Shown here piece by piece: positions 12,560-36,686 of a DNA stretch of 64,000 bases (within the stretch, counting starts at the first letter, position 1; every line of letters starts with the position of its first letter). The stretch is from an uncultured delta proteobacterium (GTDB lineage: Bacteria; Desulfobacterota; Binatia; JACPRU01): NCBI GenBank assembly GCA_963745025.1, contig CAVUWD010000013.1, positions 256,001 through 320,000 on the forward strand. The letters run 5' to 3'. The notes under the pieces were generated by a model, which was not told where the DNA came from, made no database searches, and saw nothing but the letters and a program-made list of their open reading frames with translations. A program made the position numbers and the translations under genes.

Positions 12560-12645
12560 TGGATGGCTAAGAGAGCGAACGGAGACTTGAGGATGCTCGT
12601 CCAATCGATTCGGTGTCCACCGTACGGTGGACTGAGGAAAAGACC

Positions 12646-19968: not shown

Positions 19969-21330
19969 ATGGGTCTCCTCGAGAAACTCTGGCGCGGTCG
20001 GAGGCGACGCCGTGTCTGCGTTCTTGGCCTCGACGGGGTCCCGGTCGGGCTGCTGCGTGAGCTCGCCGCCCGCGGGCAGATGCCCTGCGCCCGGGAGCTC
20101 TTGCAGAGCGGAACACTCGTCCCGATGCTCTCGACGCTGCCTACGATCTCGAGCGTCTCGTGGACGAGCTTCATCACAGGAGTGAATCCCGGCCGCCACG
20201 GGGTCTACGGCTTCACCGACCTGAAGCCGGGCAGCTACGACGTGTACTTCCCGGACTTTCGGGAGGTGAAGAGCCCGACGCTCTGGGACCTCCTCGGCAA
20301 GGAGGGCCGCACGTCGTTCGTCCTGAACGTCCCCGGCACCTATCCGGCCCGGGAGCTGCGCGGCATGATGGTCTCCGGCTTCGTCGCCGTGAACCTCGCG
20401 AGGGCGGTCCATCCGCCCTCGATCCTGCCGACGCTGCAGGGCATGGGGTACAGGATCGACGTCGAGTACGCTCGCGCCGCCGAGGAGCCCGAGAGCTTCT
20501 TCGCGGATCTCGAAAGAACGCTCGCCGCGCGCCGCCAGGCGTTCCTCCATTTCCTCCGGCAGCCCGATTGGGACCTCTTCATCGGCGTGGTCACGGAGAC
20601 CGACCGGCTGCACCATTACTTCTGGGGCGACTACGTCGATCCGACGGCGCCGCGCCACGCAGCGTTCCTCGAGCACTACCGCCAGGTCGATTCACTCGTC
20701 GGCGAGGTGGCGGCGGAGGCGGAGCGCGCCGGTGCCGAGCTCCTCATGGTGTCGGATCACGGCCACTGCCGGATCGAGCAGGAGGTGTATCCGAACGTGT
20801 GGCTGCGCGATGAGGGTTACCTTCGGTTCCGCTCGCCGGTTCCGAAGTCGGTCGCCGACCTGGACCCCGCGTCGCGGGCCTTCGTTCTCGATCCCGGCCG
20901 GATCTATCTGAACGTGCGCGGAAGGTACCCCGGCGGTTGCGTCGAGGAAGCGCAGGCGGAGGGGCTCCGGCTCGAGCTGGCCGAGCGGCTGCGCAATCTC
21001 ACGGATCCAGCAAGCGGCGAGCGGCTGGTCGGCGAGGTGTGGACCAAGGAGCAGCTGTACGCGGGCCCCCAGGTGAACCGCGCCCCGGACCTGGTCCTGC
21101 AATGCAGGAACGGCTTCGACATCAAGGGCGCCGTGGCACGACGGAATCTGGTCGGGAAGATGAAACTCACCGGGATGCATACCTACGACGACTCCGTCTT
21201 CTACGTCCGCGGCCGGTCGGTGGCGCCGGGCGACGTCCGGATCGTCGACATCGCCCCCACGATCCTCGGAATGCTCGGCGTCGACACCCCGCCGACCATG
21301 GACGGCCGCCCGCAGGTGCTCGCGGCATGA
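19969..21330 (+). CDS. alkaline phosphatase superfamily (NPP/type I phosphodiesterase-like) protein 1
   Basis: GLDG, PTISSVSWTSFITG, ETDRLHH, SDHG and GMH; no LGY tail. Confidence 0.88.
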   Translation: MGLLEKLWRGRRRRRVCVLGLDGVPVGLLRELAARGQMPCARELLQSGTLVPMLSTLPTISSVSWTSFITGVNPGRHGVYGFTDLKPGSYDVYFPDFREVKSPTLWDLLGKEGRTSFVLNVPGTYPARELRGMMVSGFVAVNLARAVHPPSILPTLQGMGYRIDVEYARAAEEPESFFADLERTLAARRQAFLHFLRQPDWDLFIGVVTETDRLHHYFWGDYVDPTAPRHAAFLEHYRQVDSLVGEVAAEAERAGAELLMVSDHGHCRIEQEVYPNVWLRDEGYLRFRSPVPKSVADLDPASRAFVLDPGRIYLNVRGRYPGGCVEEAQAEGLRLELAERLRNLTDPASGERLVGEVWTKEQLYAGPQVNRAPDLVLQCRNGFDIKGAVARRNLVGKMKLTGMHTYDDSVFYVRGRSVAPGDVRIVDIAPTILGMLGVDTPPTMDGRPQVLAA

Positions 21331-22289
21331 AGGCCGTCACCGTCGACGTCGTCACAGGCTTCCTCGGCAGCGGGAAGACGACGCTCATCAAGCACGTGCT
21401 CGAGAACGGCCTGCAGGGCCGCCGGGTCGCCGTCGTCGTGAACGAGATCGGGGACCTGAACCTCGACGGACGAATCATCGAGGGCGTGAACGTCGACAAG
21501 ATGGTCGAGCTCAGCAACGGCTGCATCTGCTGCTCGATCAGCTACCAGTTCGGCTACGCGATGCAGGAGATCGTCGAGACCACCAAGCCCGAGCTGATCG
21601 TCATCGAGACCAGTGGCGCCGCCGATCCCGGTCCGCTCGTCGACGAGGTGCGCGCCGCAGGCCTGCGAGTGGACGCGGTCATCACCGTCGTCGACGGCGA
21701 GCAGATCCAGCGGTTCTGCAAGGAGAACGTGGTGGCGCGCCACCAGCTAGAGGCAGCCGACTTCCTCGTGCTGAACAAGCGGGACCTGTTGACCCCGCGC
21801 GACCTCGACCGCGTGGGGCGCCTGCTCGGGCGATACAACCGCCGGGCCCTGGTGGTACCGACCGAGTTCGCGCGCGTCTCGACGGACCTCCTGTTCGCGA
21901 CCGGAGTGCGTCGCTTCCGCGACGAGGCGGCCGCGACTGGGCGCCGCGCGAGTCACGATCATCTCGGTGAGGACGAGATCCAGGCCTTCACGTACGAGAC
22001 GGCGGCTCCGCTCGACCGCAAGCGCTTCGAGCGGTTCCTCGCGCGGCTGCCGCACGAACTCTACCGCGCGAAGGGGATCCTCTGCTTTTCCGGCGACGAT
22101 TGGAACTCCATCTTCAGCTACACCTGCGGTCGCTACGACATCGATTGGTTCGTGCGGAAGCAGTCGCTGCCGGCGAAGTCGCAGGCGGTCTTCATCGGCA
22201 AGGGCATTCTGCGGAAGCAGGAGCGCATCCTGGCGGAGCTCGTCGATTGCCAGCTGCGCGAGATCGAGACGCGCAGCGGCGACCGCTGA
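21327..22289 (+). CDS. COG0523/CobW-family GTPase metallochaperone
   Basis: TGFLGSGKTT, NEIG, GCICC, IETSG, NKRD and YRAKG motifs. Confidence 0.9.
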   Translation: MKAVTVDVVTGFLGSGKTTLIKHVLENGLQGRRVAVVVNEIGDLNLDGRIIEGVNVDKMVELSNGCICCSISYQFGYAMQEIVETTKPELIVIETSGAADPGPLVDEVRAAGLRVDAVITVVDGEQIQRFCKENVVARHQLEAADFLVLNKRDLLTPRDLDRVGRLLGRYNRRALVVPTEFARVSTDLLFATGVRRFRDEAAATGRRASHDHLGEDEIQAFTYETAAPLDRKRFERFLARLPHELYRAKGILCFSGDDWNSIFSYTCGRYDIDWFVRKQSLPAKSQAVFIGKGILRKQERILAELVDCQLREIETRSGDR

Positions 22290-22291
22290 TC

Positions 22292-23419
22292 ATGGAGACC
22301 GCCGGCGATCCGGCGCGGGGCTCGAAGCGACGCATCCTCTTCGTCAACGTCGGCGAGGGCCGGCACGGCTCGACCTACCGCGCGCGCAAGCTCTCGGAGC
22401 TGCTCCGCGCCGGCGGGCGCGACGTGTTCTACGTGGAGTCGAACTACGAGGATACCGAGACATCGTGCTCGATCGCGCAGCCCGACACGACGATCGGCCT
22501 GATCGCCGCCACCGCTCGCCGAGTCCGGCTCTGCTGGCAGAGGGACTACGACGTGCTCTTCCTGCAAAAGCCGTTGCCCCCGACCGGGCCATGCGTGCTC
22601 GTGGCAAAGCTCAGGGGGAAAAAGGTGGCCCTCGACTTCGACGACCTCGACTCGCGCTGGCAGTCGACGGTGGTGCGGCGTAGGCTCACGGCCCTGTGCG
22701 AGCGGTGGATCCCGCGGTGCGCCGACCTGGTCACGACCCACAACCGCTACCTTCGCGAGCACATCGAGCGGACGACGGGCGTGGCAGCGGCTCTCGTGCC
22801 CCAGGGCGTCGATGCGCACCTCTTCGACCCGACGCGCTATGATCGCAGAGCCGAGAAGGAACGCGTGGGCGTCGCCGGAAAGACCGTGTGCTGCTTCCTC
22901 GGCTCGTTCACGGCGGGCAGCGCGCGCGATCTCGACGTGATTCTCCGCGCGGTGGATCTCGCCGCCCGCCGCCGCCGGGACCTCGTGCTGCTCATCATTG
23001 GCGGGGGTGGGCCACTCGAGGATCGCTATCGGCGTTTGATCGGCGAGCTCGGGATCGATGTGCGCATCACCGGGCGGCTGGCTCAGAGCGAGGTCCCGAG
23101 ATTCCTTGCGGCTACCGACCTGGGACTGATATACATGGGGGACGATCCGGCCAACCAAACGCGGATGTCGCTGAAGGTGCTTGAGTACCTAGCCATGGAG
23201 CTGACGGTCGTTGGACGCCTGGTGGGAGCGACGAAGGATGCCTTCGCGCCCTACTGCTTCGCTTGCGGGCCGTCGGAGGGGTCAATGGCGAGCCAAATCG
23301 AAGAGGTGCTCGGCGAGGGAGCACGAAAGCCGAGCGCACGAGAACTCATCTCCCGCGATTACGACTGGCGCGTGATCGGTGCCTCGCTGGAAGAAGCAGT
23401 CAGGAGTATCGAACAGTGA
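22292..23419 (+). CDS. GT4-like glycosyltransferase
   Basis: DFDD, VPQGVD, LKVLEYLAM and C-terminal YDW motifs typical of GT-B. Confidence 0.8.
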   Translation: METAGDPARGSKRRILFVNVGEGRHGSTYRARKLSELLRAGGRDVFYVESNYEDTETSCSIAQPDTTIGLIAATARRVRLCWQRDYDVLFLQKPLPPTGPCVLVAKLRGKKVALDFDDLDSRWQSTVVRRRLTALCERWIPRCADLVTTHNRYLREHIERTTGVAAALVPQGVDAHLFDPTRYDRRAEKERVGVAGKTVCCFLGSFTAGSARDLDVILRAVDLAARRRRDLVLLIIGGGGPLEDRYRRLIGELGIDVRITGRLAQSEVPRFLAATDLGLIYMGDDPANQTRMSLKVLEYLAMELTVVGRLVGATKDAFAPYCFACGPSEGSMASQIEEVLGEGARKPSARELISRDYDWRVIGASLEEAVRSIEQ

Positions 23420-24885
23420 AGATCGCGTACCTCGATGGTCCATGGCCGGATTTCGGCCATCGCACGCAGCGTTGGGCTCACAAGAATCCGGGTGGCAACA
23501 TCAACCCGCCGCCCCTCTTCCAGATGTACTCCGCTTCGATCGCCCGGCAGCGAGGGCACGAGGTCGCGCTGTGGGACGCACCGGCGCGCGGCCTCGACTA
23601 CGACGAGCTCCTCGGGCAGGTGGGCGAGTTCGGCCCCGATCTCGTCGTCGTGAACACCTCGACGCCGAGCTTCGATCACGACATGACGCTCGTCCGCAAG
23701 CTCGAGAAGAGCGTGAAGGCGGTGCGCGTGCTGGTCGGCTCTCACGTCTCCGCCCTCCCGGACGACGTGATGGCGAAGCACCCGGAAGTGGACATCATCG
23801 CCACCGGTGAATACGACGACACCATCAGCGACATCGCCGAGAACCTCTCGGACCTCTCGAAGATCGGTGGCGTCGTCTATCGCAAGAGCGGCGGACACGC
23901 GCGCACCGGCGTGCGGCCCCTGATGAAGAATCTCAACGAGCTGCCGTTCCCCGCCTACGACCTGGTGAACGTCAACGATTACCGGGAGTCGATGTTCCCG
24001 GCGCGGAAGAAGCCGATCGCGACCATGTGGACGAGCCGGGGCTGCAACTTCCACTGCAACTTCTGCCTGTTCCCGCAGATCTTCTTCCAGGACCGCATGC
24101 GCATCCGCACCCCGGAGAACATCGTCGCCGAGATCCGCTGGCTGAAGGACAAGTTCGGCGTCCAGTTCTTCTACTTCGAGGACGACAACTTCACGGCTTC
24201 GTGGAAGCGCGTCGAGACGCTCGCGCAGCGCATCATCGACGAGAAGCTGGACATCACCTGGGGATGCCTCTCCAGGACCGACGGCGTCACTCCCGAGCGG
24301 CTCGGGCTGATGAAGGAGTCCGGCTGCTACATCGTCAAGTTCGGCATCGAGACCGGCGTCGAGGAGTTCCTCGAGCACATGGAGAAGTACAACAAGATCA
24401 GTGAGATCGAAAACGCCTTCGAAGTCGCGAAGAAGGTGAACATGGTGACCCACGGAACGGTGATGATCGGCAACGCCGGCGAGACGTGGGACACGATTCG
24501 CCGCACGCGCCAGTTCATCAAGAAGCTCGCGCCGGACTCGGTCCAGTTCAGCGTGTGCACGCCGTTCCCGGGGACCCGCTTCTTCGACGAGTGCAAGGAG
24601 AAGGGCTGGCTCGACTACGAGAAGTGGGAGGACTTCGACGGCGTGACGGGCGGTGCGATCAGCTATCCCGGCCTGTCGAAGCACGACATCCAGCGCGCGG
24701 TGAAGGACTCCTACCTAGACTACTATTCCTCGTTGCCGCACGTCCGGCAGCGCTTCCGGCGGATCCTCTACGGGCCGGAGCGCGGATCGCAGATGATGCG
24801 CAATCTCTGGCTCGCGAAGCGCTTCTTCCGGATGGTTCTCAAGGAGCGTCGGCAGGTGTTGCAGGCGGCTCACGCCAGAGCCTGA
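23416..24885 (+). CDS. B12-binding domain radical SAM protein
   Basis: GTG start overlapping the previous stop; SRGCNFHCNFC, FEDDNF, GIETG and TPFPGT motifs. Confidence 0.88.
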   Translation: MKIAYLDGPWPDFGHRTQRWAHKNPGGNINPPPLFQMYSASIARQRGHEVALWDAPARGLDYDELLGQVGEFGPDLVVVNTSTPSFDHDMTLVRKLEKSVKAVRVLVGSHVSALPDDVMAKHPEVDIIATGEYDDTISDIAENLSDLSKIGGVVYRKSGGHARTGVRPLMKNLNELPFPAYDLVNVNDYRESMFPARKKPIATMWTSRGCNFHCNFCLFPQIFFQDRMRIRTPENIVAEIRWLKDKFGVQFFYFEDDNFTASWKRVETLAQRIIDEKLDITWGCLSRTDGVTPERLGLMKESGCYIVKFGIETGVEEFLEHMEKYNKISEIENAFEVAKKVNMVTHGTVMIGNAGETWDTIRRTRQFIKKLAPDSVQFSVCTPFPGTRFFDECKEKGWLDYEKWEDFDGVTGGAISYPGLSKHDIQRAVKDSYLDYYSSLPHVRQRFRRILYGPERGSQMMRNLWLAKRFFRMVLKERRQVLQAAHARA

Positions 24886-26615
24886 TGGAGCCAGCGACCC
24901 ACGTCGAGCCCGAGAAGCTGTTCGTTCTCGGGCTCGACGCCGCAACCCTCGACCTGATTCTCCCATGGGTGGAGGAGGGTAAGCTCGCTAACTTCAGCCG
25001 CCTGCTGCGGGAGGGGGCATGGGGTCCACTAGAGTCCACCCTGCACCCGCTGAGCCCGCCTGCGTGGACGTCCTTCATCACCGGTCGCAATCCCGGGAAC
25101 CACGGCATCTACGACTTCGTCGTCCACAAGCCCGGCACGCACGAGCTGATCTACACGAACGGTGGCATGCGCCGCGGAGCGTCGCTCTGGCGCCTGCTCA
25201 GCGATGCCGGGAAGCGCGTCGTGATTCTGAACGTGCCGATGACCTACCCACCCGAGCCGGTCAACGGGCTGCAGGTCTCGGGCTTCGATGCGCCTGGCAT
25301 CGACTCGGACTTCATCCACCCGCGTGCCGCACGTGACGAGATCACGCGCGCGCTCGGCGAGTTCGTCCTCCGGGACTACCCGCAGGGTCACAGTCCGGAG
25401 TCCTTCCTGAGGCAGATCCACGTGATCCTCGACTTTCACCGCCGCCTCACCTTTCACGCGCTCGAACGGTACGAGTGGGACTTCTTCATGGTGGTGTGGA
25501 GTGCGCTCGACCTCGTGCAGCACGGCTACTGGCAGTACATGGACCCGAAGTTCGCGAGCGTGTCGGCGGAAGACCGTGCCCGCTTCGGAAGCGCGATCCA
25601 CGACCTCTACGTGAAAATCGACGGCATCCTCGGCGAGCTGCTCGAGCGCCTACCCAACGGGGCGCGCGTCGCCGTGGTCTCGGATCACGGCGCCGGGCCC
25701 TGCTACAAGGCGATTTTCATCAACAAGTGGCTCGAGTCGCTCGGCTACCTGCGCTACGTGGGGGGCGCCCGGTCGGGCTCGGTCGCCGACCGAGCGAAGA
25801 CGGCGGGGCTTGCGGCGCTGAAGCTCCTCCACGGCGGGATCAAGCGCCACGTCCCTCCGGCGGGTCTGGAATGGCTGAAGCGCAGGTTCCCGGTCCTTCG
25901 CGAGAAGGTCAAGTCGCGCCTGGTTTTCTCCGAGATCGACTGGAGACACACCCGGATTTATTCCTTCGGCCGCGAGAGCACCAACCTCTTCGTGAACCTC
26001 AAGGGGAAGTTGCCGCAGGGTACGGTCGAGCCTGGCGAAGAGTACGAGCGGCTGCGCGAGACGGTGACGCGGCAGCTTGCGGAGCTCCGCGATCCCGACA
26101 CCGGAGAACCGGTGGTCGATCGCGTCTACCGGAAGGAGGAGGTCTACCACGGGGAGTGTTTGGACTTCGCCCCAGACCTGCTCGTGACGTGGCGCGATTC
26201 CACCTACACCTCCTGGCCCGGGTACTCCGACCGAACGCGAGCGATCTTCGAGTCGAGCCTGAACCACAGCGACTACAGTGATTGGTCGAGCCTGCAGAAG
26301 GGCGGGAACCATCGGCGCAGTGGCATCCTCTTCCTTCGCGGCGACGGCGTGCGCGCGGGGCACGCGCTCGCGGGCGCACGCATCATCGACCTCGCGCCGA
26401 CCCTTCTGAACCTCATGGGCGTGCCCGTCCCGTCGGACATGGACGGGATCGTGCTCGCCGACGCGTTCACGGCCGAGTTCCGGACGGCGCATCCGCCGCA
26501 GTACACCGCGGCGAAAGCGCCTCCAGCGCCCCCGGATCGACCGACGAGCGGGTACGACGAGCGCGAGAGCGAGCTGATCGCGACGCGCCTGCGCAGCCTC
26601 GGCTATGTCGACTGA
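24885..26615 (+). CDS. alkaline phosphatase superfamily (NPP-like) protein 2
   Basis: GLDAA, PLSPPAWTSFITG, DLVQH, SDHG, GNH; ends LRSLGYVD. Confidence 0.88.
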   Translation: MEPATHVEPEKLFVLGLDAATLDLILPWVEEGKLANFSRLLREGAWGPLESTLHPLSPPAWTSFITGRNPGNHGIYDFVVHKPGTHELIYTNGGMRRGASLWRLLSDAGKRVVILNVPMTYPPEPVNGLQVSGFDAPGIDSDFIHPRAARDEITRALGEFVLRDYPQGHSPESFLRQIHVILDFHRRLTFHALERYEWDFFMVVWSALDLVQHGYWQYMDPKFASVSAEDRARFGSAIHDLYVKIDGILGELLERLPNGARVAVVSDHGAGPCYKAIFINKWLESLGYLRYVGGARSGSVADRAKTAGLAALKLLHGGIKRHVPPAGLEWLKRRFPVLREKVKSRLVFSEIDWRHTRIYSFGRESTNLFVNLKGKLPQGTVEPGEEYERLRETVTRQLAELRDPDTGEPVVDRVYRKEEVYHGECLDFAPDLLVTWRDSTYTSWPGYSDRTRAIFESSLNHSDYSDWSSLQKGGNHRRSGILFLRGDGVRAGHALAGARIIDLAPTLLNLMGVPVPSDMDGIVLADAFTAEFRTAHPPQYTAAKAPPAPPDRPTSGYDERESELIATRLRSLGYVD

Positions 26616-28321
26616 GCGAAAGATCCTCGCGATCGGGCTCGATGCCGCAACCTTCGACCTGATCGACCCGTGGGTGAAGGCGGGCCAGCTTCCCGCCTTT
26701 GGGCGATGCCTCGCCGCAGGCACACGAGCCGATCTCCGCTCCACGCCTTTGTCGAACAGCGCCCAAGCATGGTCCTCGTTCATCACCGGAAAGAACCCCG
26801 GGAAGCACGGAATCTACGACTTCTTCGAGCCGCGGCAGGACGGCTACGGCGTTCGCTTCGTCAACGCGAGCTTTCGAAAGGGAAAGAGCCTGTGGGGGAT
26901 GCTCGGCGAGGCGGGCAAGCGAGTCGTGGTGATCAACGTGCCGATCACCTACCCCGCGGAGGCCGTGAACGGAGTCCTGATCGCGGGTCTCGACGCACCG
27001 GGCGTGGACAGACGCATCGCGCATCCCCCCGAAATTCTGCGCGAGCTCCGGGAGCGCGTCGGGCCCTATCGGGTCGAGGCGGGCGTCTGGGGATTCATGC
27101 GCAACGGCCGCCCGGACCTCGCCCTCGAGGGGCTCCTCGAGACGATCGAGTCGCGCGCCGCGACGGCGAAGTACCTGATGGCACGCGAGCCGTGGGACTT
27201 CTTCCAGGTCGTCTTCACCGAGACGGACAAGGTGCAGCACCATTTCTGGAAGTACGTGGATCCCAGCCGTGCGGCGAGCGTGCCGCCCGAGGAGCGGCGC
27301 TACGGCGAGGCGATCTTCAGGGTGTACCAGCGGCTCGACGAGGTCATCGGCGAGCTCTGCGCTCTGGCTCCGGCGGACGTCACGGTGCTTTTGATGTCGG
27401 ACCACGGAGCGGGACCGTCGAGCCATCGCACGCTCTACATAAACCGCTGGCTCGCGCACGAGGGCTTCCTCACGTACCGGGAGCCGGGAGGTGGGCGCGG
27501 CGCCGCGGCGACACTCCTCGACGGGGCGCTCCGGGGCAGCGATCTGTTCCTCAAGAAGGTGCTCCCGCGACGCGCCAAGGAGCACCTCCTTCGCCTCTTC
27601 CCCGGCGTACGCGACCGGGTGGACTCGATGCTGCAGCTCGGCGGCATCGACTGGTCGCAGACAGTCGCCTACTCGCGCGAGAACCATCCCGCGATCTTCA
27701 TCAACCGTAAGGGCCGGGAGCCTGGCGGCATCGTCGAGCCCGGCGAGCCGACCCTGCGGGTCCGTCAAGAGATCGTGGACCGCCTCCTCGGGCTGCGCTG
27801 CGCCGAGAGCGGCGAGCCGATCGTCGACCGAGTCACCTTCGGGGAGGAGGTCTTCCACGGGCCCGAGTCGTGGCGCGGTCCGGACATCCTGTTCTCCTTC
27901 CGCGGCCACGCGTACGTGCAGCGACCGACCGGCCCGGACCGGCGCGACGGATTCTTGAAGCTACTGACGCCTGCTGAGCGCGAGCGCGCGGAGATCACCG
28001 ACCGGCCGAGCGGCATCCATCGCGACCTCGGCGTGTTCGTGGCCGCCGGGCCCGCGATTCCGGCGTCCCGCGAGATCGGGTGCGTCGACCTGTTCGACGT
28101 GACGCCGACTATCCTCTACCTGCTCGGTGTTCCCGTTCCGGACGACATGGACGGCCGAGTGCTCGTCGAGCTGTTCGCCCCCGCGTTCGTCGAGGCGAAC
28201 CCCGTCCGCATCGCGCCGAGCGGCCCGACCGTGTCGGGCGACCGGCACGCCGAGCGCGTTCGAGGAGGACGAGGAGCGGATCATCCGGGAGCGCCTCGAG
28301 GGCCTCGGCTACATCGACTGA
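26605..28321 (+). CDS. alkaline phosphatase superfamily (NPP-like) protein 3, +1 frameshift near 28243
   Basis: GLDAA, SNSAQAWSSFITG, DKVQHH, SDHG, GIH; the expected tail FEEDEERIIRERLEGLGYID-stop is in the +1 frame. Confidence 0.8.
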
Positions 28322-28332
28322 GGCGACGCGCC

Positions 28333-28455
28333 GTGAGCACCGCCCGACCTTTGATCCTCCTCGGCATCGACGGAGGGACCCTGGACCTGGTCCTGCCGTG
28401 GGTGGACGAGAAGCACATCCGCGAGTACCTGCGCGGGCTGGGATACACGGATTGA
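28333..28455 (+). pseudogene. 40-aa internally deleted NPP-like paralog, or a stand-alone LGY-tail peptide
   Basis: VSTARPLILLGIDGGTLDLVLPWVDE (family N-terminus) joined directly to KHIREYLRGLGYTD (family C-terminus). Confidence 0.7.
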
Positions 28456-30161
28456 AGAGCCGCATCCTCATTTTCGGTCTGGACGGCGCCACCTTCAGGG
28501 TCGCGCGGCCGCTCGCCATGGCGGGGCGGATGCCGACGCTCGCCCGCCTCCTCGAGCGTGGCGCCTGGGGCGAGCACGCCTCGACCCACGAGATCAACAG
28601 CCCGAACGCCTGGTCCACCTTCATCACCGGCAAGAACGCGGGAAAGCACGGGATCTACGGCTTCTTCGAAACCGCGCCCGGGAGCTACGACGTGCGTTTC
28701 GTCAACGGCTCCTTCCGGGCGGGGAAGTCGCTCTGGCGGATGGCGACGGAGCACGGTCGGTCGGTCGGTGCGGTCAACGTGCCGATGACGTACCCAGCGG
28801 AGGAGGTGAACGGCTTCGTGATCGCGGGACCCGACGCCCCGAGCCAGGACGCTCCTGGCTTCTGCTCGCCGCCCGACCTCGTCCGCGAGGTCGTGAAGGC
28901 GACGGGGCTGTATGTCATCGAGGCTGGTGCCTCGTCGCTCGTCCGGCAGGGGCGCCCGGCGGAGGCGCTACGCGCGCTCGAGGAGAGCATCCGGGCGAGG
29001 ACGGAGGTCGCCCGCTGGCTAGTTCGGCACCACCCAACCGACCTTTTCATGATCACCTTCACCGAGGCGGATCGGGTACAGCATCACTTCTGGAAGTACG
29101 TGAATCCGCAGCACCCCGCGAGTCAGACGCCGCAGGCGCGGGTCTTCGGAGAGGCGATTCACCGGGTTTACGAGCAGCTCGACAGGGCAGTCGCGGCGAT
29201 TCTGGACGCCGCCGGCGGCGACCCCACGGTGATCGTCGTCTCCGACCACGGGGCGGGCCCGTCGAGTGCGCGAACCTTCTTCATCAATCGCTGGCTCGAG
29301 TCGATTGGGCAGCTCGGCTTCCGTCGTGACGAATCCCTTTCCGCCAAACTTCGCCGGCCGGCCGAGCGGATGATGAACGCCGCATATCTGTACGCCCGCC
29401 GCCGCCTTTCGAAGTCGTGGAAGCGGCGCTTGCGGAGCCGACTCCCGGGCGTCAAGAACAGGATGCACACGAACCTGCTCGCCTCGTCACGGATCGATTG
29501 GCCGTCGACGCGGGCGTTCTCTCGCGAGAACCTCCCGACGATCTACGTCAACGTGAAGGGCCGCTACCCGGCAGGCACGGTGGAACCGGGAGGCGAGTAC
29601 CGGGACCTCTGCCAAGATCTCGCCGGCCGGCTCATGGCGCTCCGCTGTCCGTTCACGGGAGGGCAGATCGTCGAACGCGTGCGGATGCGGGACGAGATGT
29701 ACTGGGGGCCGTTTGTCGACAAGGCGCCCGATCTGCTCATCGAATGGAAGGATGGCGGCTACACGGAACGTCCCGAATACGTGAACCCGGGGGCCGCCTT
29801 TGTCGCAGAACTCCGGGGCCGAGAGCTCGCGCGCGCCGAGCTCGCCAGCCGGCCGAGCGGCATCCACGCGCGGGAGGGCATCTTCGTCGCGAGCGGCGAG
29901 GGCATCGTCGCCGGGCGGTCGCTCGCGGGGCTCGAGCTCTACGACGTCACGGCAACTCTCCTCTATCTCTTGGACGTCCCGGTTCCGCCTGACCTGGATG
30001 GGAAGGTGCGCACGGATCTCTTCGACGCCGACTACGCCGAGGCACGTCCCGTCCGGTACTCCGAGGAAGAGACGAGCGCACAGGCCTCCCCCCGGGAATT
30101 CTCCTCCGAGGACGCGGATCGCATCGAGGAACGACTCCGGGGGCTGGGCTACATCGAGTGA
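28452..30161 (+). CDS. alkaline phosphatase superfamily (NPP-like) protein 4
   Basis: TTG start; GLDGA, INSPNAWSTFITG, DRVQHH, SDHG, GIH; ends LRGLGYIE. Confidence 0.86.
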   Translation: MKSRILIFGLDGATFRVARPLAMAGRMPTLARLLERGAWGEHASTHEINSPNAWSTFITGKNAGKHGIYGFFETAPGSYDVRFVNGSFRAGKSLWRMATEHGRSVGAVNVPMTYPAEEVNGFVIAGPDAPSQDAPGFCSPPDLVREVVKATGLYVIEAGASSLVRQGRPAEALRALEESIRARTEVARWLVRHHPTDLFMITFTEADRVQHHFWKYVNPQHPASQTPQARVFGEAIHRVYEQLDRAVAAILDAAGGDPTVIVVSDHGAGPSSARTFFINRWLESIGQLGFRRDESLSAKLRRPAERMMNAAYLYARRRLSKSWKRRLRSRLPGVKNRMHTNLLASSRIDWPSTRAFSRENLPTIYVNVKGRYPAGTVEPGGEYRDLCQDLAGRLMALRCPFTGGQIVERVRMRDEMYWGPFVDKAPDLLIEWKDGGYTERPEYVNPGAAFVAELRGRELARAELASRPSGIHAREGIFVASGEGIVAGRSLAGLELYDVTATLLYLLDVPVPPDLDGKVRTDLFDADYAEARPVRYSEEETSAQASPREFSSEDADRIEERLRGLGYIE

Positions 30162-31666
30162 ACGAGAACGGAAGCGGGAAGCCACTGATGGGACCGGGCC
30201 ACGTGGAGCCGGCGCTGCGTGTGATCCGCAACAGCGGTCTCCTCATGGCGGGAGAGATGTACGGCGTATCGGTGAACCTAGTCACCGTCGGCATTCTCTC
30301 CCGCTACCTGCCGCTCGATGTGTTCGGGGACTACGGCTTCATCCTGGCCGTCTCGATGACGTTCATGGTGCTGACCGATATGGGCGCCGGCCCCATCGCG
30401 ATCCGAGAGATCGCTCGCGACCTGCGCAGTGCCGAGAAGGTGTTCGCCGCCACGGTCATTTTGCGCTGTCTGTTCTCTGTCGTGACGTTCATCGCGATCA
30501 TGGGGATGGTTCGGATGACTTCCGATTCGCCCGCGGTGCTGAAAGCGACGTTCATCTCGGCGATCGCCGTGGTCGTCTTCTTTCTCGGCGACGTTCCGCC
30601 GATTGTCTTCATCGCCTACGAGCGCATGCAGTTCAACGCGATCGTCAAGGTGGCCGCGGAAACGGTCTACCTGGCCGGGATCGTGGCGGTCGCGTTCTTC
30701 GACTTCGGCCTCAACGGGGTCTTTCTCGTTTCGCTCGCGTCGTACGCGGCGCGGCTCGCGATTGGACTGTTGATCCTGAAGCGATGCTTCTTTTCTCCCC
30801 GTCTCACATGGGATCCAGCTCTTCTCCGGTGGCTCTTCCTCGAGGCTCTGCCGGTCGGCGCCAACCGGCTTCTCCGGAAGGTCAGCTTCCGGATCGATAC
30901 GATCCTTCTCCAGGTCCTGAGGACCCGGGAAGAGGTCGGAATTTTCCACGGGATCTACCGAGTGGTCCTCGGGGTGCTCTTCGTCCCGCGGATGATCACG
31001 GACGCGCTCTTCCCTCTCTTCGCGCGCTACTCCGAGGGATCTTCCGTCGCGATGGCGGTCTCCTTCGAGAAGTCGATGAAGTTTCTTCTGATCCTCGTGC
31101 TCCCGCTGATGCTCGTCGTCTTCGTCGACGCGGAAGGCATCGTCGTGCTCCTCCTCGGCAAGAACTTCGCGTCCACGGGCGGGCTCTTGCAGCTCTTCTG
31201 TCTGGTCTGGGGGGTGTCGTTCTTCAGTGTGCTCTGCGACAAGGTGCTGAACGCGTCGAACCACCAGCGCCTCGCGACCATCGCCACCGCCTGCTGCGTC
31301 GCCGTCAACCTCGCCCTCGATCTCGCGCTGATCCCCTCATTCGGTTACATGGGGGCGGCGGTGGCGACCCTGTGCGCGGAAACGGTGCTTTTGGTCGTCG
31401 GATTCCGTTTCGTCTCGACCCGGATCTGTCGCGTAGCGGTGGTTTCCGTCCTGTGGAAGCCGGCCTTCGCAGGTGTATCGGCCGCGCTCGTGGCGTCCGT
31501 GCTTTCGTCCTCGGCGCCTTGGATTCGGGCATCGATCGCCCTCGCGGCGTACGCCTCGCTCTTGTTGGCGCTCGGCGCGTTCGACCGATCGGAGATCGAC
31601 GTGCTCCGCGCCGCGGGCCGACAGCTGCATCGCCGGTTCACGCACCTCGCGGCCGCGCCGCGCTAG
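30158..31666 (+). CDS. wzx: oligosaccharide flippase (Wzx-like)
   Basis: Many hydrophobic segments; SRYL...FGDY, RIDTILL, VGIF and LIPSFGYMGAAVAT motifs. Confidence 0.85.
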   Translation: MNENGSGKPLMGPGHVEPALRVIRNSGLLMAGEMYGVSVNLVTVGILSRYLPLDVFGDYGFILAVSMTFMVLTDMGAGPIAIREIARDLRSAEKVFAATVILRCLFSVVTFIAIMGMVRMTSDSPAVLKATFISAIAVVVFFLGDVPPIVFIAYERMQFNAIVKVAAETVYLAGIVAVAFFDFGLNGVFLVSLASYAARLAIGLLILKRCFFSPRLTWDPALLRWLFLEALPVGANRLLRKVSFRIDTILLQVLRTREEVGIFHGIYRVVLGVLFVPRMITDALFPLFARYSEGSSVAMAVSFEKSMKFLLILVLPLMLVVFVDAEGIVVLLLGKNFASTGGLLQLFCLVWGVSFFSVLCDKVLNASNHQRLATIATACCVAVNLALDLALIPSFGYMGAAVATLCAETVLLVVGFRFVSTRICRVAVVSVLWKPAFAGVSAALVASVLSSSAPWIRASIALAAYASLLLALGAFDRSEIDVLRAAGRQLHRRFTHLAAAPR

Positions 31667-31714
31667 GATCGACGAGGGCGCGAACCGGCCGCTGAGAAAG
31701 GATCATTCCAGGCC

Positions 31715-33427
31715 ATGAATCCCGAACCGAAGAAGGTCTTCGTACTGGGCCTCGACGGCGCGACGCTCGACGTGCTGAAGCCCCTCGCCGAGAGCGGACG
31801 ACTGCCGAACATCGCCGCTCTCATGCGCGGTGGCGTGCACGCAAAGCTGAACTCCACGATTCTCCATCACTCGGCTCCGGCGTGGACGTCGTTCGCCACG
31901 GGAAAGAATCCGGGTAAGCACGGGATCATCGGCTTCACGAAGATCCAGCGGAACACCTACAAGCTCGCGCTGGTCAACGGCGCCTCCAACCGGGCGAGAA
32001 CCGTGTGGCAGCACCTGAGCGACCTCGGCAAGGACGTGATCGTCGTCAACGTGCCGATCACGTACCCCCCTCGAGCCGTCAACGGAGTGATGGTGAGCGG
32101 CCTGGACACGCCGAGCACGAAGACAGCCTTCACCTATCCGCCGGAGGTGAAAGACGAGATTCTCCAGGTGTCACCCGACTACAAGATCAACTTGCATCTG
32201 GGTGGCTATCTCCACAACGACCGGCGCCGGCTGCAAGCTCTCGAGATCATGGCGGCGGCCACCCGCGCCCGGGCGAAGGCCGTGGTCCACCTGATGACTC
32301 ACCACCCGTGGGACTTCTTTGCGGTGCGCTTCAACAGTCCCGACAATGCCCAGCACCAATACTGGAGCTTCATGGACGAGACGCATCCCCAGCACGACCC
32401 GTCGAGCCCGCCCGCTTTGAAGAACGCCATCCCCGCCACCTACGAGCTCCTGGACGAGGTGGTCGGGGAGGTGCTGCGGAGCCTCGACCCGTCGAAGACG
32501 ATGCTTCTCATCATGTCGGATCACGGCGCGGGCCCGCGAACCGGGAAATCAATCTACGTCAACGAGTGGCTGCGGAGCTTGCACCTCCTCGCGCGACCCA
32601 GCGATGACAGCGGCGGCGGCCGCGTCTACCGGGCGTTCGACGACGCTATGTTCCTCCTGAAAGGCCGCGTGCTCGCCTTCCTGCTTCGCACGCTGCCGCC
32701 CGATGTGAAGAACGCCCTGCTGCAGTACGTGCCTTCCGCCGCCGGCACGACGGCATCGTACCTGCGGTTCTCGAGCATCGATTGGTCGAAGACCAAGGCG
32801 TTCGTCGGCGAGGTGGAGGGAATCCGGATCAACCGCCAGGGCCACTATCCCAACGGTATGGTGAGCGACCAAGAGTACGAATCGCTACGCGAACGGCTCG
32901 TCGCGGAGGCGAAGCAGATCCAGGACCCGGAGACCGGAGCGCCGATCTTCAAGGGCGTCTACAAGCGGGAAGACGTCTTCCACGGAGACTCCGTCGGGGA
33001 GTTCCCGGACATCATCCTCAAGCCCCACGACAAGTACTACGTGAGCCCGCGCCTGTTCCGCTTCGGCGAGAGCCGTGGAGGATCCTTCGTCGTGCGAGAC
33101 GAGCACTGGCGCAAGATCAGCGGCTCCCACCGCCAGTATGGAATCTTCATCGCGAACGGGCCGGACTGCCCCGCCGGCCTGGAGATAGAGCCCGTCGACA
33201 TCATGAACGTCTTTCCCACCGTCCTCTACCAGATGGGCTTGCCGATTCCGGATGATCTCGACGGTACGGTCGCCTGGGACGTTTTTCGCGAAGAGTTCCG
33301 CAAGGAGAACCCACCCCGCTATGCGAAGGCGTTCGAGGCGCCCTCCGACGCTCCCGGCGCGGACTACACGGACGCCGACAACGCCAAGCTCATCGACAGC
33401 CTGAAGGGGCTCGGCTACATCGAGTAG
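31715..33427 (+). CDS. alkaline phosphatase superfamily (NPP-like) protein 5
   Basis: GLDGA, HSAPAWTSFATG, DNAQH, SDHG, GSH; ends LKGLGYIE. Confidence 0.88.
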   Translation: MNPEPKKVFVLGLDGATLDVLKPLAESGRLPNIAALMRGGVHAKLNSTILHHSAPAWTSFATGKNPGKHGIIGFTKIQRNTYKLALVNGASNRARTVWQHLSDLGKDVIVVNVPITYPPRAVNGVMVSGLDTPSTKTAFTYPPEVKDEILQVSPDYKINLHLGGYLHNDRRRLQALEIMAAATRARAKAVVHLMTHHPWDFFAVRFNSPDNAQHQYWSFMDETHPQHDPSSPPALKNAIPATYELLDEVVGEVLRSLDPSKTMLLIMSDHGAGPRTGKSIYVNEWLRSLHLLARPSDDSGGGRVYRAFDDAMFLLKGRVLAFLLRTLPPDVKNALLQYVPSAAGTTASYLRFSSIDWSKTKAFVGEVEGIRINRQGHYPNGMVSDQEYESLRERLVAEAKQIQDPETGAPIFKGVYKREDVFHGDSVGEFPDIILKPHDKYYVSPRLFRFGESRGGSFVVRDEHWRKISGSHRQYGIFIANGPDCPAGLEIEPVDIMNVFPTVLYQMGLPIPDDLDGTVAWDVFREEFRKENPPRYAKAFEAPSDAPGADYTDADNAKLIDSLKGLGYIE

Positions 33428-33431
33428 AATC

Positions 33432-35099
33432 TTGGCGCGGCGCGTCTTCTGCATCGGTCTCGACGGCGGTACCTTCGATCTCGTCGACCGCTTCGTCGGG
33501 GAAGGACGCTTGCCTCATCTCGGGCGATTCTTGAGAGAAGGCACGCGCGCCGAGCTGCGCTCCGTCCTCTTGCCCTTCACGCCCCAGGCCTGGAGCTCCT
33601 TCCTCACCGGCGTGAATCCGGGCCGGCACGGCATCTTCGGATTCAAGGAGAAGTCGGCCAACGACTACTCCTTCCAGCTCGTCAACGCCCGGCGACTGCG
33701 CAGCAAGACGCTCGCGCAGATGCTCGGCGATGCCGGGAAGAAGGTGATCCTCCTCAACGTCCCGATGAACTATCCGCCGCCGGCCGTGAACGGGATCGTC
33801 GTCGGCGGCATGGACTCCCCGGGAATCAGCTCGAACTTCACCCATCCGCCCGAAGTCAAGGACGAGATCCTCGGGCTCGCCAAAGACTACGTGATTCATC
33901 TGCACGTCGGGGCCGGTTATCTCGATTCGGACGTCAAGCGACGCGAGGCGGTTCGGGCGTTGCTCGCCGTTGCGGCGGCGCGCGAACGCGTGATCCTCCA
34001 CCTGATGGACAAGTACCCTTGGGACCTTTTCGCCCTGAACTTCGGCGAGACGGACCAGGTGCAACATCACTTCTGGCGTTACCTCGAGAGCGGGGGTGAG
34101 TTCCAGGACGCGATCCGCCAGGTCTACGAGAGGATCGACGAGGCCGTCGGTCGGATCACGGCAAAGCTCGGCGACGACGTGGTGCAGCTCGTCGTCTCGG
34201 ACCACGGCGCGGGCGCGGCCTCGAACCTCGTCTTCTTCATCGACGAGTGGCTCCGGTCCGAGGGATTGCTGCAGTTCCGGAACGTGGCAGTCGCCAAGCG
34301 CGTCGCGCGGGGGTTCCTCGGCTTCGCCCTGGACTCGTTGTCGCGAACGTTGTCGTCGTCTGCGAAAGACGCTCTCATGCACCGGTTTCCTCAGCTGCGC
34401 GCACGTACCCAAGGGTTCGTTCGTCGCTCACTCGTCGACTGGTCGAAGACCAGCGTCTACTCCGGCGAGCACCCGGCAACGCTTCGCGTGAACCTCGCCG
34501 GCCGCGATCGGAGCGGCATAGTGACCGGGACCCAACGGTACGAAGAGCTGCGGACGGCGCTCATCGACAAGCTCCGAGGACTCGTGGATCCCGTGAGCGG
34601 GAAGGCTCTCATCGAAGAGGTGTATCGGCGCGAAGAGGTGTACCACGGACCGTTTCTCGAGTCCGCGCCCGACCTGATCCTGGTTCCGAAGGACTTCGCC
34701 CATCAGATCCTCGGCGGGCCCTATCCCCGCAACCGCCACTACCGACAGGTGATCTCCACGAAGGACACGCGGAAGTTCTTCGTCAACGGGACCCATCGGA
34801 TGAACGGGATGTTCATTGCGCGAGGCAAGGACCTGCATGCCGGCCGGAGCCTTCCTCGGCTCGAGATCACCGATCTCTGCCCGACGATCCTCTACTCCCT
34901 CGGCATGGCGGTGCCGAACGGCCTCGATGGGCGTGTCGTCACCGAAATTTTCACCGACCGCCATCTCGCCGAGAATCCGGTGCGGTACGTCGACTACGAT
35001 CTCCGGTCCGGTGGAGTGGACGGCGGACAACCGTCTTACACGGACGAGGAGTCCCGTGTCGTGGAGCAGTCGCTGCGCAATCTCGGCTACATCGAGTAG
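33432..35099 (+). CDS. alkaline phosphatase superfamily (NPP-like) protein 6
   Basis: GLDGG, PFTPQAWSSFLTG, DQVQHH, SDHG, GTH; ends LRNLGYIE. Confidence 0.88.
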   Translation: MARRVFCIGLDGGTFDLVDRFVGEGRLPHLGRFLREGTRAELRSVLLPFTPQAWSSFLTGVNPGRHGIFGFKEKSANDYSFQLVNARRLRSKTLAQMLGDAGKKVILLNVPMNYPPPAVNGIVVGGMDSPGISSNFTHPPEVKDEILGLAKDYVIHLHVGAGYLDSDVKRREAVRALLAVAAARERVILHLMDKYPWDLFALNFGETDQVQHHFWRYLESGGEFQDAIRQVYERIDEAVGRITAKLGDDVVQLVVSDHGAGAASNLVFFIDEWLRSEGLLQFRNVAVAKRVARGFLGFALDSLSRTLSSSAKDALMHRFPQLRARTQGFVRRSLVDWSKTSVYSGEHPATLRVNLAGRDRSGIVTGTQRYEELRTALIDKLRGLVDPVSGKALIEEVYRREEVYHGPFLESAPDLILVPKDFAHQILGGPYPRNRHYRQVISTKDTRKFFVNGTHRMNGMFIARGKDLHAGRSLPRLEITDLCPTILYSLGMAVPNGLDGRVVTEIFTDRHLAENPVRYVDYDLRSGGVDGGQPSYTDEESRVVEQSLRNLGYIE

Positions 35100-35219: not shown

Positions 35220-36686
35220 ATGAGGACCATCGTCTTGGGAGCCGGGTTGTCCGGCCTTGCATGCGCGACCGCGCTCCGGCTCCGCGGCGCGGACGTCGTC
35301 CTGGTCGAGCGGGAAGCGGAGGTGGGCGGGCTCGCAAAGTCATTCCGCATCGACGGTTACACGTTCGACTACGGGCCCCACTTCCTGTTCGGTCGGGACG
35401 TTCTACCCCTGCTCGCGGACACCCTGTCGCCCGGCCTCGACCTGCTCCCCATCCGTCGGGCGAACGAGAAGATGCACTTCCGCGACCGCTACTTCACGTT
35501 TCCGTTCGACCCCAAAGACCTGCTGCGTCAGATGGAACCGCGCCTGATGCCCGGGATCCTCTGGGAGCTTCTCCGGCGCAACATGTTTCTCCAGTTCAGC
35601 GACGAGAGGGAGCGCGGCAACGTCGAGGAGTGGGTGATCCGAGGAGTCGGCAGACGCGTCTACGATTACATCTCGCTCGGCGGTTACATCAACAAGCTCT
35701 ACGGCCTGCCGGCCACGCGAATCTCGCAGGATTGGGGCATCCAGAAGCTCAAGTTCCTCTCGCGCTGGCGGGAAGCGAACATCCTCCGCCTGGCGACGAA
35801 CGCCCTGCGGGAGGAGCGACGGGTCAAGCAGAACGTGATCCATTATCCTTCGGGTGGCGGAATCGATGCGATTGCCAAAGGGATCGCGGCCACCTATGCG
35901 GGCCTCGGAGGGGAACTGCTGTGCGGCGCCGAGATCTCCGGCGTCGAGCGACGCGGCGAGCGAATGCAGGTCCACTACCGGAGCGCCGGCGGCGAGGGGA
36001 CTCTCGAGGGGGAATTCGTCGTGTCGACGCTTCCGGTCGGCAAGTTCGTCGCGATGCTGTCACCCGAGCCCGCGAAACCGATTCTCGAGGCGGCGCGCTT
36101 CCTGCGGCATCGAACGCTCCTCCTCGTGCTCCTTTGTCTCGGCAAGGAGCGCGCGCTAGAGTACGCCTCGATTTACTTCACCGAGCCGCAGTTCCCCTTC
36201 CGCAGGATCACCGAGTTCAAACACTTGAGCGCTTCCATGGCGCCCGGGGAAAAGACGTCCTTGTGCGTGGAGATCACCTGCTTCGACGACGATCCGGTGA
36301 CCCAGGAGGACAGATCCAAACTCCTCACCAGCGTGATCGGGCCGCTCGAGCGGGGAAAGTTCATTCGAGCGAGCGAGATCGATACGTGCCACGTCCTTCG
36401 CGTCGCGCACACCTACCCGGTGTACGAGGTCGGCTACGAGGCGGCGCTCCGGACCCTGTTGGAACACCTTGCGGCGCTCGAGAACGTCGTGTCGATCGGG
36501 CGGCAGGGACTCTTCTTCTACAACCTGATGCACAACTGCATGCTCGACGGGTATCGGCTCGCGGAAGGGATCGACGGGCGCGACGGCGCCGGCAGGCACG
36601 AGGTCATCCAGCGGCTTTACGCGGAGCGCCTTGAGAAGTACGCCTCCGCCCGGTCTTCGGGTCCATCGGAGAGCCATGCGGACTGA
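35220..36686 (+). CDS. FAD-dependent oxidoreductase (protoporphyrinogen oxidase/UDP-galactopyranose mutase-like fold)
   Basis: GAGLSG Rossmann motif, VGGLAKS, FDYGPH, YPSGGG, YPVY and IGRQGLFFY. Confidence 0.8.
   Translation: MRTIVLGAGLSGLACATALRLRGADVVLVEREAEVGGLAKSFRIDGYTFDYGPHFLFGRDVLPLLADTLSPGLDLLPIRRANEKMHFRDRYFTFPFDPKDLLRQMEPRLMPGILWELLRRNMFLQFSDERERGNVEEWVIRGVGRRVYDYISLGGYINKLYGLPATRISQDWGIQKLKFLSRWREANILRLATNALREERRVKQNVIHYPSGGGIDAIAKGIAATYAGLGGELLCGAEISGVERRGERMQVHYRSAGGEGTLEGEFVVSTLPVGKFVAMLSPEPAKPILEAARFLRHRTLLLVLLCLGKERALEYASIYFTEPQFPFRRITEFKHLSASMAPGEKTSLCVEITCFDDDPVTQEDRSKLLTSVIGPLERGKFIRASEIDTCHVLRVAHTYPVYEVGYEAALRTLLEHLAALENVVSIGRQGLFFYNLMHNCMLDGYRLAEGIDGRDGAGRHEVIQRLYAERLEKYASARSSGPSESHAD

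Follow-up and report, generated by a model that had tools for sequence, protein, structure and literature searches.

Six NPP-Like Paralogs in a Wzx/Wzy-Type Polysaccharide Cluster of a Binatia Bacterium Probably Tailor the Repeat Unit Before Flipping

In a 64,000-nucleotide stretch of DNA from an uncultured delta proteobacterium of the Binatia (GenBank assembly GCA_963745025.1, contig CAVUWD010000013.1, positions 256,001 to 320,000 of the forward strand; hereafter the window, with its first letter as position 1), we identified six diverged paralogous genes, P1 to P6, between positions 19969 and 35099. They lie within a Wzx/Wzy-type polysaccharide cluster, delineated by a Pfam scan of open reading frames (ORFs), that occupies 12.6–38.1 kb of the window on the plus strand. 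Judging from their sequences, the six genes probably encode two-metal enzymes of the nucleotide pyrophosphatase/phosphodiesterase (NPP) branch of the alkaline phosphatase superfamily, with zinc as the probable metal, and the probable role of the six enzymes is to tailor the sugar repeat unit ahead of flipping. As to the chemistry, we tentatively favor group transfer onto the lipid-linked repeat unit at the cytoplasmic face of the membrane, and weigh this reading below against phosphomutase activity, sulfuryl transfer, and hydrolysis.

Family, Fold, and Catalytic Residues

All six gene products match PF01663 (Phosphodiest) with E-values of 1.4e-29 to 7.9e-43 and scores of 104–148 bits against a cut-off of 23; no NCBIfam model exceeds its cut-off for any of them. 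The short-form paralog P1 (19969..21330, plus strand, 453 aa; E 7.9e-43) is followed on the same strand by five long forms: P2 (24885..26615, 576 aa; 1.2e-36), P3 (26605..28321, with an intact PF01663 catalytic domain in a frame that stays uninterrupted to 28455), P4 (28452..30161, 569 aa, TTG start; 1.4e-29), P5 (31715..33427, 570 aa; 6.7e-38), and P6 (33432..35099, 555 aa; 1.4e-35). The starts of P2 (ATG at 24885) and P4 (TTG at 28452) fall inside longer open frames. Pairwise identity among the six is 31–44%, P3 and P4 being the closest pair (44%), and five of the six share a conserved C-terminal LGY[IV][DE] tail.

The original prediction, made from the sequence alone, had described the paralogs as carrying intact metal sites, and a six-way alignment confirms this for both the metal-site and the catalytic residues: D22, D212, H216, S262-D263-H264-G265, G402, and H404 (P1 numbering) are invariant, and the catalytic set reads DSDHDHH in P1–P5 and DTDHDHH in P6, with all seven residues kept. 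The predicted motif [ST]-x-x-[AS]-W-[TS]-x-F-x-TG likewise fits all six sequences, with Ser in P1–P5 and Thr as the nucleophile in P6. The Asn column of the NPPs (N120 in P1), presumably a contact of the phosphoryl group in those enzymes, is also kept in all six. In a profile alignment with ENPP1, the Ser/Thr column of the paralogs corresponds to Thr in the 4b56 and 4gtw chains and to Ala in the 6aek chain; we take the Thr to be the catalytic residue and the Ala to mark an engineered inactive form.

Structure prediction, which had been suggested as a check, was carried out for P5 as the sole paralog folded, and the resulting AlphaFold2 model (pLDDT 90.6, pTM 0.91) has an alkaline-phosphatase-like fold nearest to the NPPs. 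Its top Foldseek matches are Xac NPP and ENPP6, 7, 5, 3, and 1, followed by phosphonoacetate hydrolase; the top entries (2gsn, 5egh, 5tcd, 6f2v, and 5ven) have E-values of about 1e-16 to 4e-16 and TM-scores of 0.61–0.69 by target.

The family is large, with 4372 cluster representatives at E ≤ 1e-30, 12004 at E ≤ 1e-10, and 18738 at E ≤ 0.001. All seven catalytic residues are kept in 137 of 149 near-complete relatives, which indicates family-wide selection on catalysis; among the exceptions are one actinomycete clade (EEDHEIH) and two copies from the same genome as the window (contig C15), in which the N-terminus lies outside the alignment. The EEDHEIH clade, which has lost catalytic residues, occurs at actinomycete loci L010 and L012, where two or three NPP-like genes lie in an apparent natural-product cluster with an AMP-ligase/O-methyltransferase fusion, radical S-adenosylmethionine (SAM) enzymes, a carrier protein, and a CysN-like GTPase (below cut-off). 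The best representative match of P5 (P0242, 1104 aa) contains two matching stretches, the better of which spans nearly all of P5; it probably consists of two NPP-like domains fused in tandem.

Existing annotation says little of function. A protein atlas search returned generic names only for the paralogs, and a literature search found no functional study of the family and no characterized member. In one public source, many of the 120 listed homologs of P5 are named “predicted AlkP superfamily phosphohydrolase/phosphomutase”, a label that we take to be that of COG3379. The name raises the possibility that the paralogs are phosphomutases acting on sugar phosphates and supplying unusual precursors; cofactor-independent phosphoglycerate mutase and phosphopentomutase are alkaline phosphatase superfamily enzymes, and P1 has a weak C-terminal NCBIfam match to the former (E 2e-4, 19.9 bits against a cut-off of 330). 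However, the best fold and profile matches are NPPs, six mutases would be hard to motivate where the cluster shows no nucleotide-sugar pathway genes, and the membrane-type insert described below would be left unexplained, so that we regard a mutase role as very improbable.

Cellular Location and a Basic Insert

Location was assessed from Kyte-Doolittle hydropathy in 19-residue windows. The highest values for P1–P6 are 1.10–1.66, compared with 2.47 for the flippase Wzx, in which 96 windows lie above 1.6, and the N-termini of the paralogs lead directly into the first beta-strand, where the metal-binding Asp is located. The scan found no signal peptide in any paralog, as had been predicted, and no transmembrane segment, and the six proteins are therefore cytoplasmic or peripheral. 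The RRRRR stretch of P1 was considered as a Tat signal and rejected, because what comes next is the conserved first strand, with its metal-binding Asp, where the 19-residue hydropathy does not exceed 1.45.

P2–P6 carry an insert after the SDHG motif, modeled in P5 (about residues 290–355) as three helices at low confidence, which P1 lacks. The stretch scanned has a net charge of +4 to +17, and its most amphipathic windows reach hydrophobic moments of 0.44–0.61. Across the family, the corresponding region spans 59–76 residues with a median net charge of +8 in the P2–P6 clade (29 rows) and a median of 73 residues with a median charge of +7 in the clade of the sulfotransferase-sandwich loci (21 rows). 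It is 20–21 residues long with a median charge of −1 in the P1 clade (7 rows), 26–33 residues with a median of −0.5 in a clade fused to ATP sulfurylase (14 rows; see below), and 17–33 residues with negative net charge in three actinomycete gene-cluster groups. This composition suggests that the basic insert may be a membrane or anionic-lipid docking element. Its absence from the clades with soluble-substrate contexts would fit action at the membrane on lipid-linked intermediates.

Conservation of the Paralog Set Around the Flippase Gene

As originally noted, the paralogs flank the flippase gene (30158..31666, plus strand; PF01943 at 2.4e-27, PF13440): the P4 stop codon overlaps the Wzx start (GTGA), and P5 begins 49 bases past the Wzx end. 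P1 sits 3.5 kb upstream of the other five. Further stop/start overlaps join P1 to a CobW-type GTPase gene, which starts inside the P1 stop codon (ATGA), a radical SAM gene to P2 (TGATG), P2 to P3, and a small relic gene to P4, and the genes are therefore read as one unit.

Related loci were collected in two samples. The first comprises 78 loci, drawn from the 80 most P1-like of 603, and is biased to short forms; the second comprises 20 loci around the best long-form matches from the same phylum, with at most four candidates scored per genome. ORF calling in the high-GC loci (L004–L014 and L020) was rough, and some true genes were dropped. Arrays are common, with two or more copies within about 21 kb in 45 of 98 related loci. 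In particular, the planctomycete cluster L034 contains one-to-one orthologs of P2, P5, and P6 (SH-aLRT 99–100 in a tree of 80–92 members): P2 pairs with L034:4925-6613 (SH-aLRT 100, 62% identity), P5 with L034:9923-11716, and P6 with L034:8186-9919, and P3 and P4 are co-orthologous to L034:3175-4926. The order there is two paralogs, Wzx, two paralogs, a FAD enzyme (L034:11748-13217), a fifth paralog, an unassigned gene, and Wzy, so that the FAD enzyme following a paralog pair is conserved as well. One-to-one orthologs in a similar layout indicate that the paralog split is old and that the set travels together, which argues for copies that are specialized and kept. The phylogeny and the recurring flippase position thus fit the idea of one paralog per task, which the original prediction had framed as one per position or donor. 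P1 falls in a separate short-form clade with members from L001, L019, and L007.

Not all copies are equally well preserved. The canonical tail of P3 (RLEGLGYID before the stop codon; …EEDEERIIRERLEGLGYID), at 28256-28321, is out of frame, and a shift of frame near 28233-28255 is needed to reach it; without that shift, the reading frame stays open to 28455. In doing so it enters a 40-codon mini-ORF (28333..28455, plus strand) in which, by translation and likeness to the paralog ends, about 23 N-terminal paralog residues (…LILLGIDGGTLDLV…) are joined to a 14-residue C-terminal tail (…YLRGLGYTD). This mini-ORF is the relic of a seventh NPP-like gene after internal deletion, and through it the P3 frame again ends in an LGY-type tail. 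In an environmental contig of about 95% identity, an additional base after 28233 and another after 28238 put the P3 tail in frame, although as a single contig with a depth of 4.58 it is weak evidence; the frame difference reflects either true variation between strains or a fault in the assembly.

P1 and Its CobW-Type GTPase

The gene coupled to P1 (21327..22289, plus strand) encodes a CobW/COG0523-type GTPase (PF02492 at 5.3e-46, PF07683) with a CxCC motif; its matches to the ZigA and CobW NCBIfam models fall under their cut-offs. The same NPP/CobW adjacency is found in L001 and L005, and within the first sample a CobW-type gene is present in 3 of 78 loci and a priming transferase gene in 7 of 78. 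A model of the P1–GTPase complex gave an ipSAE of 0.64 (0.61, 0.70, and 0.64 in separate runs) against 0.00 for the best of three controls. Of solved complexes, 116 of 157 attain this value, as do 2 of 215 mismatched pairs; these counts are approximate because the alignments were our own. The runs have at least 61% of contacts in common, with a partner pLDDT of at least 69. On the GTPase side the modeled interface includes residues 71–81, just past the CxCC motif, and on the P1 side Y125-P126, adjoining N120. The model supports binding of the GTPase near the active-site entrance of P1, and these contacts would fit metal delivery to a cytoplasmic metalloenzyme. This arrangement also supports the cytoplasmic location claimed for the paralogs, since the COG0523-type GTPase is itself cytoplasmic, is coupled to P1 in translation, and is placed by the model near the P1 active-site entrance.

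Proposed Mechanism

In the mechanism that we tentatively favor, the paralogs would tailor the undecaprenyl-diphosphate-linked repeat unit on the cytoplasmic side of the membrane, ahead of its translocation by Wzx. A Ser/Thr alkoxide activated by the metal pair would attack a phosphodiester or phosphoanhydride donor (a phosphosulfate donor being less likely), the enzyme would become covalently substituted, and the group would then be handed to a glycan hydroxyl. P2–P6 would dock at the membrane via the 59–76-residue basic helical insert, each serving a different position or donor. P1, which has no insert and would obtain its metal from the co-translated GTPase, would more likely handle a soluble precursor. 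Our first choice is a phospho-substituent donated by an inner-leaflet phospholipid or by a nucleotide-activated compound, because the window encodes no donor-making enzyme. What the data establish is the fold, the catalytic residues, the lack of export signals, the operon position, and the conservation of orthologs; membrane docking, the lipid-linked acceptor, and transfer over hydrolysis we infer.

Links to Sulfate Activation

Genes of sulfur metabolism recur near family members. Within 10 kb, APS (adenosine 5′-phosphosulfate) kinase is found in 7 of 78 and ATP sulfurylase in 5 of 78 loci of the first sample, and neither is found in the 20 loci of the second. Taken together with canonical sulfotransferase genes, such neighbors occur within 10 kb in 15 of 97 unique related loci, compared with a chance expectation of about 0.5 loci, on our estimate that a single-copy gene of a 4-Mb genome has a chance of about 1 in 200 of lying inside a given 20-kb interval. 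APS kinase or ATP sulfurylase is present at L003, L019, L020, L028, L030, L035, L056, and L076, and sulfotransferase-like ORFs at L019, L053/L090, L062, L069, L071, L072, L089, and L094, with canonical sulfotransferases interleaved with family members at L053/L090, L089, L094, and L069. The neighbors are direct at L003 (APS kinase-NPP-NPP), L028 (NPP ahead of a fused ATP sulfurylase/APS kinase gene, at a locus where no sulfotransferase was seen), and L019 (APS kinase, CysQ-like, sulfotransferase, and NPP), with further cases at L030, L035, L056, and L076.

At L020:1073-3700, an ATP sulfurylase (PUA_2 and PF01747) and an NPP-like domain form one fused protein, the coding sequence passing from one to the other without a stop codon, and an APS kinase gene follows. 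Relatives of this fusion are widespread: among 8000 proteins scored, 5701 match at E ≤ 1e-10, and all 120 of the matches listed (P0122–P0241) carry PF01747 and PF01663, 118 of them also PF14306. Most listed matches are about 860 aa long, and P0214 also carries an APS kinase domain (PF01583). The fused domains form a sister clade with a stand-alone paralog on contig C10 of the same genome as the window, and none of P1–P6 falls inside it; the seven catalytic residues are kept, with Gly in place of the NPP Asn. Our literature search found no paper describing an ATP sulfurylase::NPP fusion.

These links raise the possibility that P1–P6 are a new type of sulfuryl transferase, a special case of the transferase reading in which the Ser/Thr would accept the sulfuryl group of APS or its 3′-phosphorylated form (PAPS) and pass it to the glycan, yielding a multiply sulfated polysaccharide. 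Besides the 15 loci, the direct neighbors, and the widespread fusion, this is favored by a gene for a secreted true sulfatase, now broken, at the end of the cluster. However, no locus of the second sample, which holds the closest long-form arrays from the same phylum, has APS kinase or ATP sulfurylase; several of the linked loci already have canonical sulfotransferases; the window itself contains no sulfate-activation gene, those of the genome being on another contig, with four or five canonical sulfotransferases elsewhere; and the six keep the Asn that we take to be a phosphoryl contact in NPP. As far as our literature search reached, no sulfotransferase of the alkaline phosphatase fold was found. 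Overall, we consider sulfuryl transfer unlikely. In its boldest form, the six enzymes would write a position-specific pattern of sulfation (or of a phospho-substituent) before flipping, with the fusions as donor-channeling versions, and this we find equally improbable.

The sulfatase gene (38163..39500, plus strand), of the formylglycine type and reconstructed by reading three frames, encodes a signal peptide and a CNPSR motif, and its pieces have weak PF00884 and PF16347 matches. Read by eye, it contains about nine frame changes and one in-frame stop, compared with a single frame change in the 15 kb upstream; related environmental contigs differ from the window by 1-base indels at 38442, 39067-39071, and 39407. 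The gene may be a pseudogene or reflect a local assembly fault. A secreted CNPSR sulfatase gene ending the cluster counts in favor of sulfate in the polymer. All seven PF00884 proteins that adjoin family members elsewhere lack the C/S-x-P-x-R formylglycine motif. Among these seven are a fusion to a GT4 glycosyltransferase (L092:11007-13964) and two to an LPG_synthase_TM membrane domain (L093:9143-12301 and L097:6369-9449); for a sulfatase-fold domain fused to a cytoplasmic glycosyltransferase, tailoring would make more sense than degradation.

Elsewhere in the genome, APS kinase and ATP sulfurylase genes lie on contig C2 with GT9 and PMT_2 genes (C2:179000-185000, locus L080), the APS kinase gene right after those for PMT_2 and the GT9 heptosyltransferase and the ATP sulfurylase gene divergent. 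Canonical sulfotransferases are encoded on contigs C11 and C10, four or five of them clustering at C11:501600-506500. The organism probably sulfates another envelope glycan. Sam10, an “unprecedented” sulfotransferase, was considered as a precedent; according to its description (PMC13291958), it has a canonical sulfotransferase fold and is thus irrelevant to the paralogs. The accessible part of another report (PMC11641403) mentions canonical sulfotransferases only.

Transfer or Hydrolysis

A further possibility is that the paralogs are pathway-specific hydrolases (phosphodiesterases or pyrophosphatases), like all characterized PF01663 enzymes. Their possible roles would include clearing inhibitory by-products such as nucleoside di- and monophosphates, adenosine 3′,5′-bisphosphate, or pyrophosphate, trimming a transient phosphate or phosphodiester from an intermediate, and releasing or recycling the lipid carrier. 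Every matching solved structure (NPPs, ENPP1–7, phosphonoacetate hydrolase, sulfatases, and PafA) is named as a hydrolase, and our literature search found no PF01663 transferase. The ATP sulfurylase fusion, which is the strongest functional link found and belongs to a sister clade without P1–P6, can be read as a pyrophosphate-hydrolyzing helper; the 120 of 120 listed matches with this fusion, the APS kinase gene that follows at L020, and the APS kinase domain of P0214 would all fit such a role. The arrangement mirrors the fusions of ATP sulfurylase with inorganic pyrophosphatase in stramenopiles and haptophytes (some algae and oomycetes), which are described as pulling an unfavorable reaction (PMC2275785).

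The hydrolase names of the matching structures, the absence of a PF01663 transferase from the literature search, and the sister-clade position and hydrolytic reading of the fusion also weigh against membrane-face transfer, as do three others. The proposed membrane docking derives entirely from sequence composition. The frameshifted P3 tail and the decayed seventh copy indicate that not every copy is under strict selection. Among 48 scanned ORFs of the window there is no cytidylyltransferase, APS kinase, ATP sulfurylase, or sulfotransferase, although 13 of 28 ORFs in one of the window scans have no assigned family.

Nevertheless, hydrolysis leaves several features unexplained. By-product removal does not account for five or six diverged copies kept one-to-one across phyla, nor for a basic insert restricted to the clades with flippase-type loci, and an enzyme that cut the diphosphate bond between the lipid and the repeat unit would destroy the very intermediate of the pathway. 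Furthermore, the fused clade has Gly where the six have Asn, so the chemistry may differ between the clades. We consider a purely hydrolytic role somewhat less likely, and continue to favor, with some reserve, transfer onto the lipid-linked repeat unit.

Comparison with Known Systems

The paralogs share with the NPPs (Xanthomonas NPP and ENPP1, 3, 5, 6, and 7) the Pfam family, the fold, the two-metal Asp/His site, the Thr/Ser nucleophile, and the Asn. By contrast, identity to them is only 12–14%, and the paralogs lack a signal peptide and are cytoplasmic, whereas ecto-NPPs are secreted or outward-facing; no hydrophobic N-terminus or transmembrane segment was found by hydropathy. They also add the 59–76-residue basic insert (P2–P6) and the LGY[IV][DE] tail (five of six), and they form arrays within a polysaccharide operon.

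Phosphonoacetate hydrolase (PhnA), which is a cytoplasmic enzyme, is a PF01663 member as well, and among solved structures it is the best sequence match (3t02/3szy, over the N-terminal 100 residues; E 0.004). However, the PhnA model TIGR02335 scores only 20.7–32.7 bits on the paralogs against a cut-off of 407.55, and no phosphonate genes were seen in the family scans of the window.

LtaS, EptA, OpgB, and BcsG are alkaline phosphatase superfamily enzymes that decorate envelope glycans via a covalent Ser/Thr intermediate; enzymes of the LtaS/EptA type belong to PF00884, possess transmembrane domains at the N-terminus, and work on the outer side of the membrane. The six paralogs, in contrast, are PF01663 proteins, soluble or peripheral and cytoplasmic, so that the likeness is one of proposed mechanism. 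None of them matches PF00884 at E ≤ 0.001 or has a transmembrane segment, and none matches the canonical PAPS sulfotransferase profiles (PF00685/PF13469).

EboF belongs to a PF01663 lineage without targeting signals and is encoded in the ebo biosynthetic operon, according to its description (PMC5133447), and by that description it resembles the paralogs in family, in lack of targeting signals, and in being encoded inside a biosynthetic operon. The ebo context consists of prenyltransferase and cyclitol genes, in contrast to the polysaccharide operon of the paralogs, and no ebo-type neighbors were found in the roughly 25 loci scanned with Pfam. Finally, the ATP sulfurylase::NPP fusions are of the same family as the six and keep the seven catalytic residues, but they form another clade, lack the basic insert, have Gly for Asn, and are tied to sulfate activation rather than to a flippase.

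Other Genes of the Cluster

The upstream half of the cluster consists, in order, of genes for a B12-binding radical SAM enzyme (12613-14133), a GT2 glycosyltransferase (14209-15174), a priming sugar transferase (about 15171-16232), Wza (16229-17269), Wzc (17303-19366), and a HEAT-repeat protein, all on the plus strand and assigned by Pfam. In the downstream half, also on the plus strand, P1 and the GTPase gene are followed by a GT4 glycosyltransferase gene (22292..23419, ATG at 22292; PF13692, PF00534) and a second B12-binding radical SAM gene (23263..24885; PF04055, PF02310). These genes therefore share the 19969..35099 interval with the paralogs, as do those of the GTPase and of Wzx, which lies between the P2–P4 and P5–P6 groups. 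After P6 come a FAD-dependent oxidoreductase (35220..36686; PF01593, PF13450) and the Wzy-type polymerase (36631..38115; PF04932).

Both B12-binding radical SAM genes are closest to HpnJ but fall under its cut-off, the second scoring 274 bits with TIGR03471 against 577.6. Genes of this kind accompany family members in 11 of the 78 loci of the first sample and in 5 of the 20 of the second, with runs of up to four in L091 and L096. Downstream of the cluster, on the minus strand (39632-41164), is a gene whose product, a secreted protein of 510 aa, matches no Pfam or NCBIfam family. Weak relatives occur in similar clusters, beside the Wzy gene in L067 and also in L085, L087, L091, and L096, and the protein may be a glycoside hydrolase for the polymer.

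Implications

The P3 frameshift, the seventh-copy relic, the L034 orthologs, the insert of P2–P6, and the link between P1 and the CobW-type GTPase are new in this analysis. The P1–GTPase pair would be among the few defined clients of a COG0523 metallochaperone. The family as a whole is of interest for its size, with the 4372 representatives at E ≤ 1e-30, given that no characterized member was found in the literature search, and the ATP sulfurylase fusion offers a directly testable way into its chemistry. Should the family members prove to be cytoplasmic transferases, polysaccharide tailoring, and possibly sulfation, would gain a missing class of enzyme, and the family would help to account for the assembly of heavily anionic polymers by anammox, nitrifying, and sulfate-reducing lineages.

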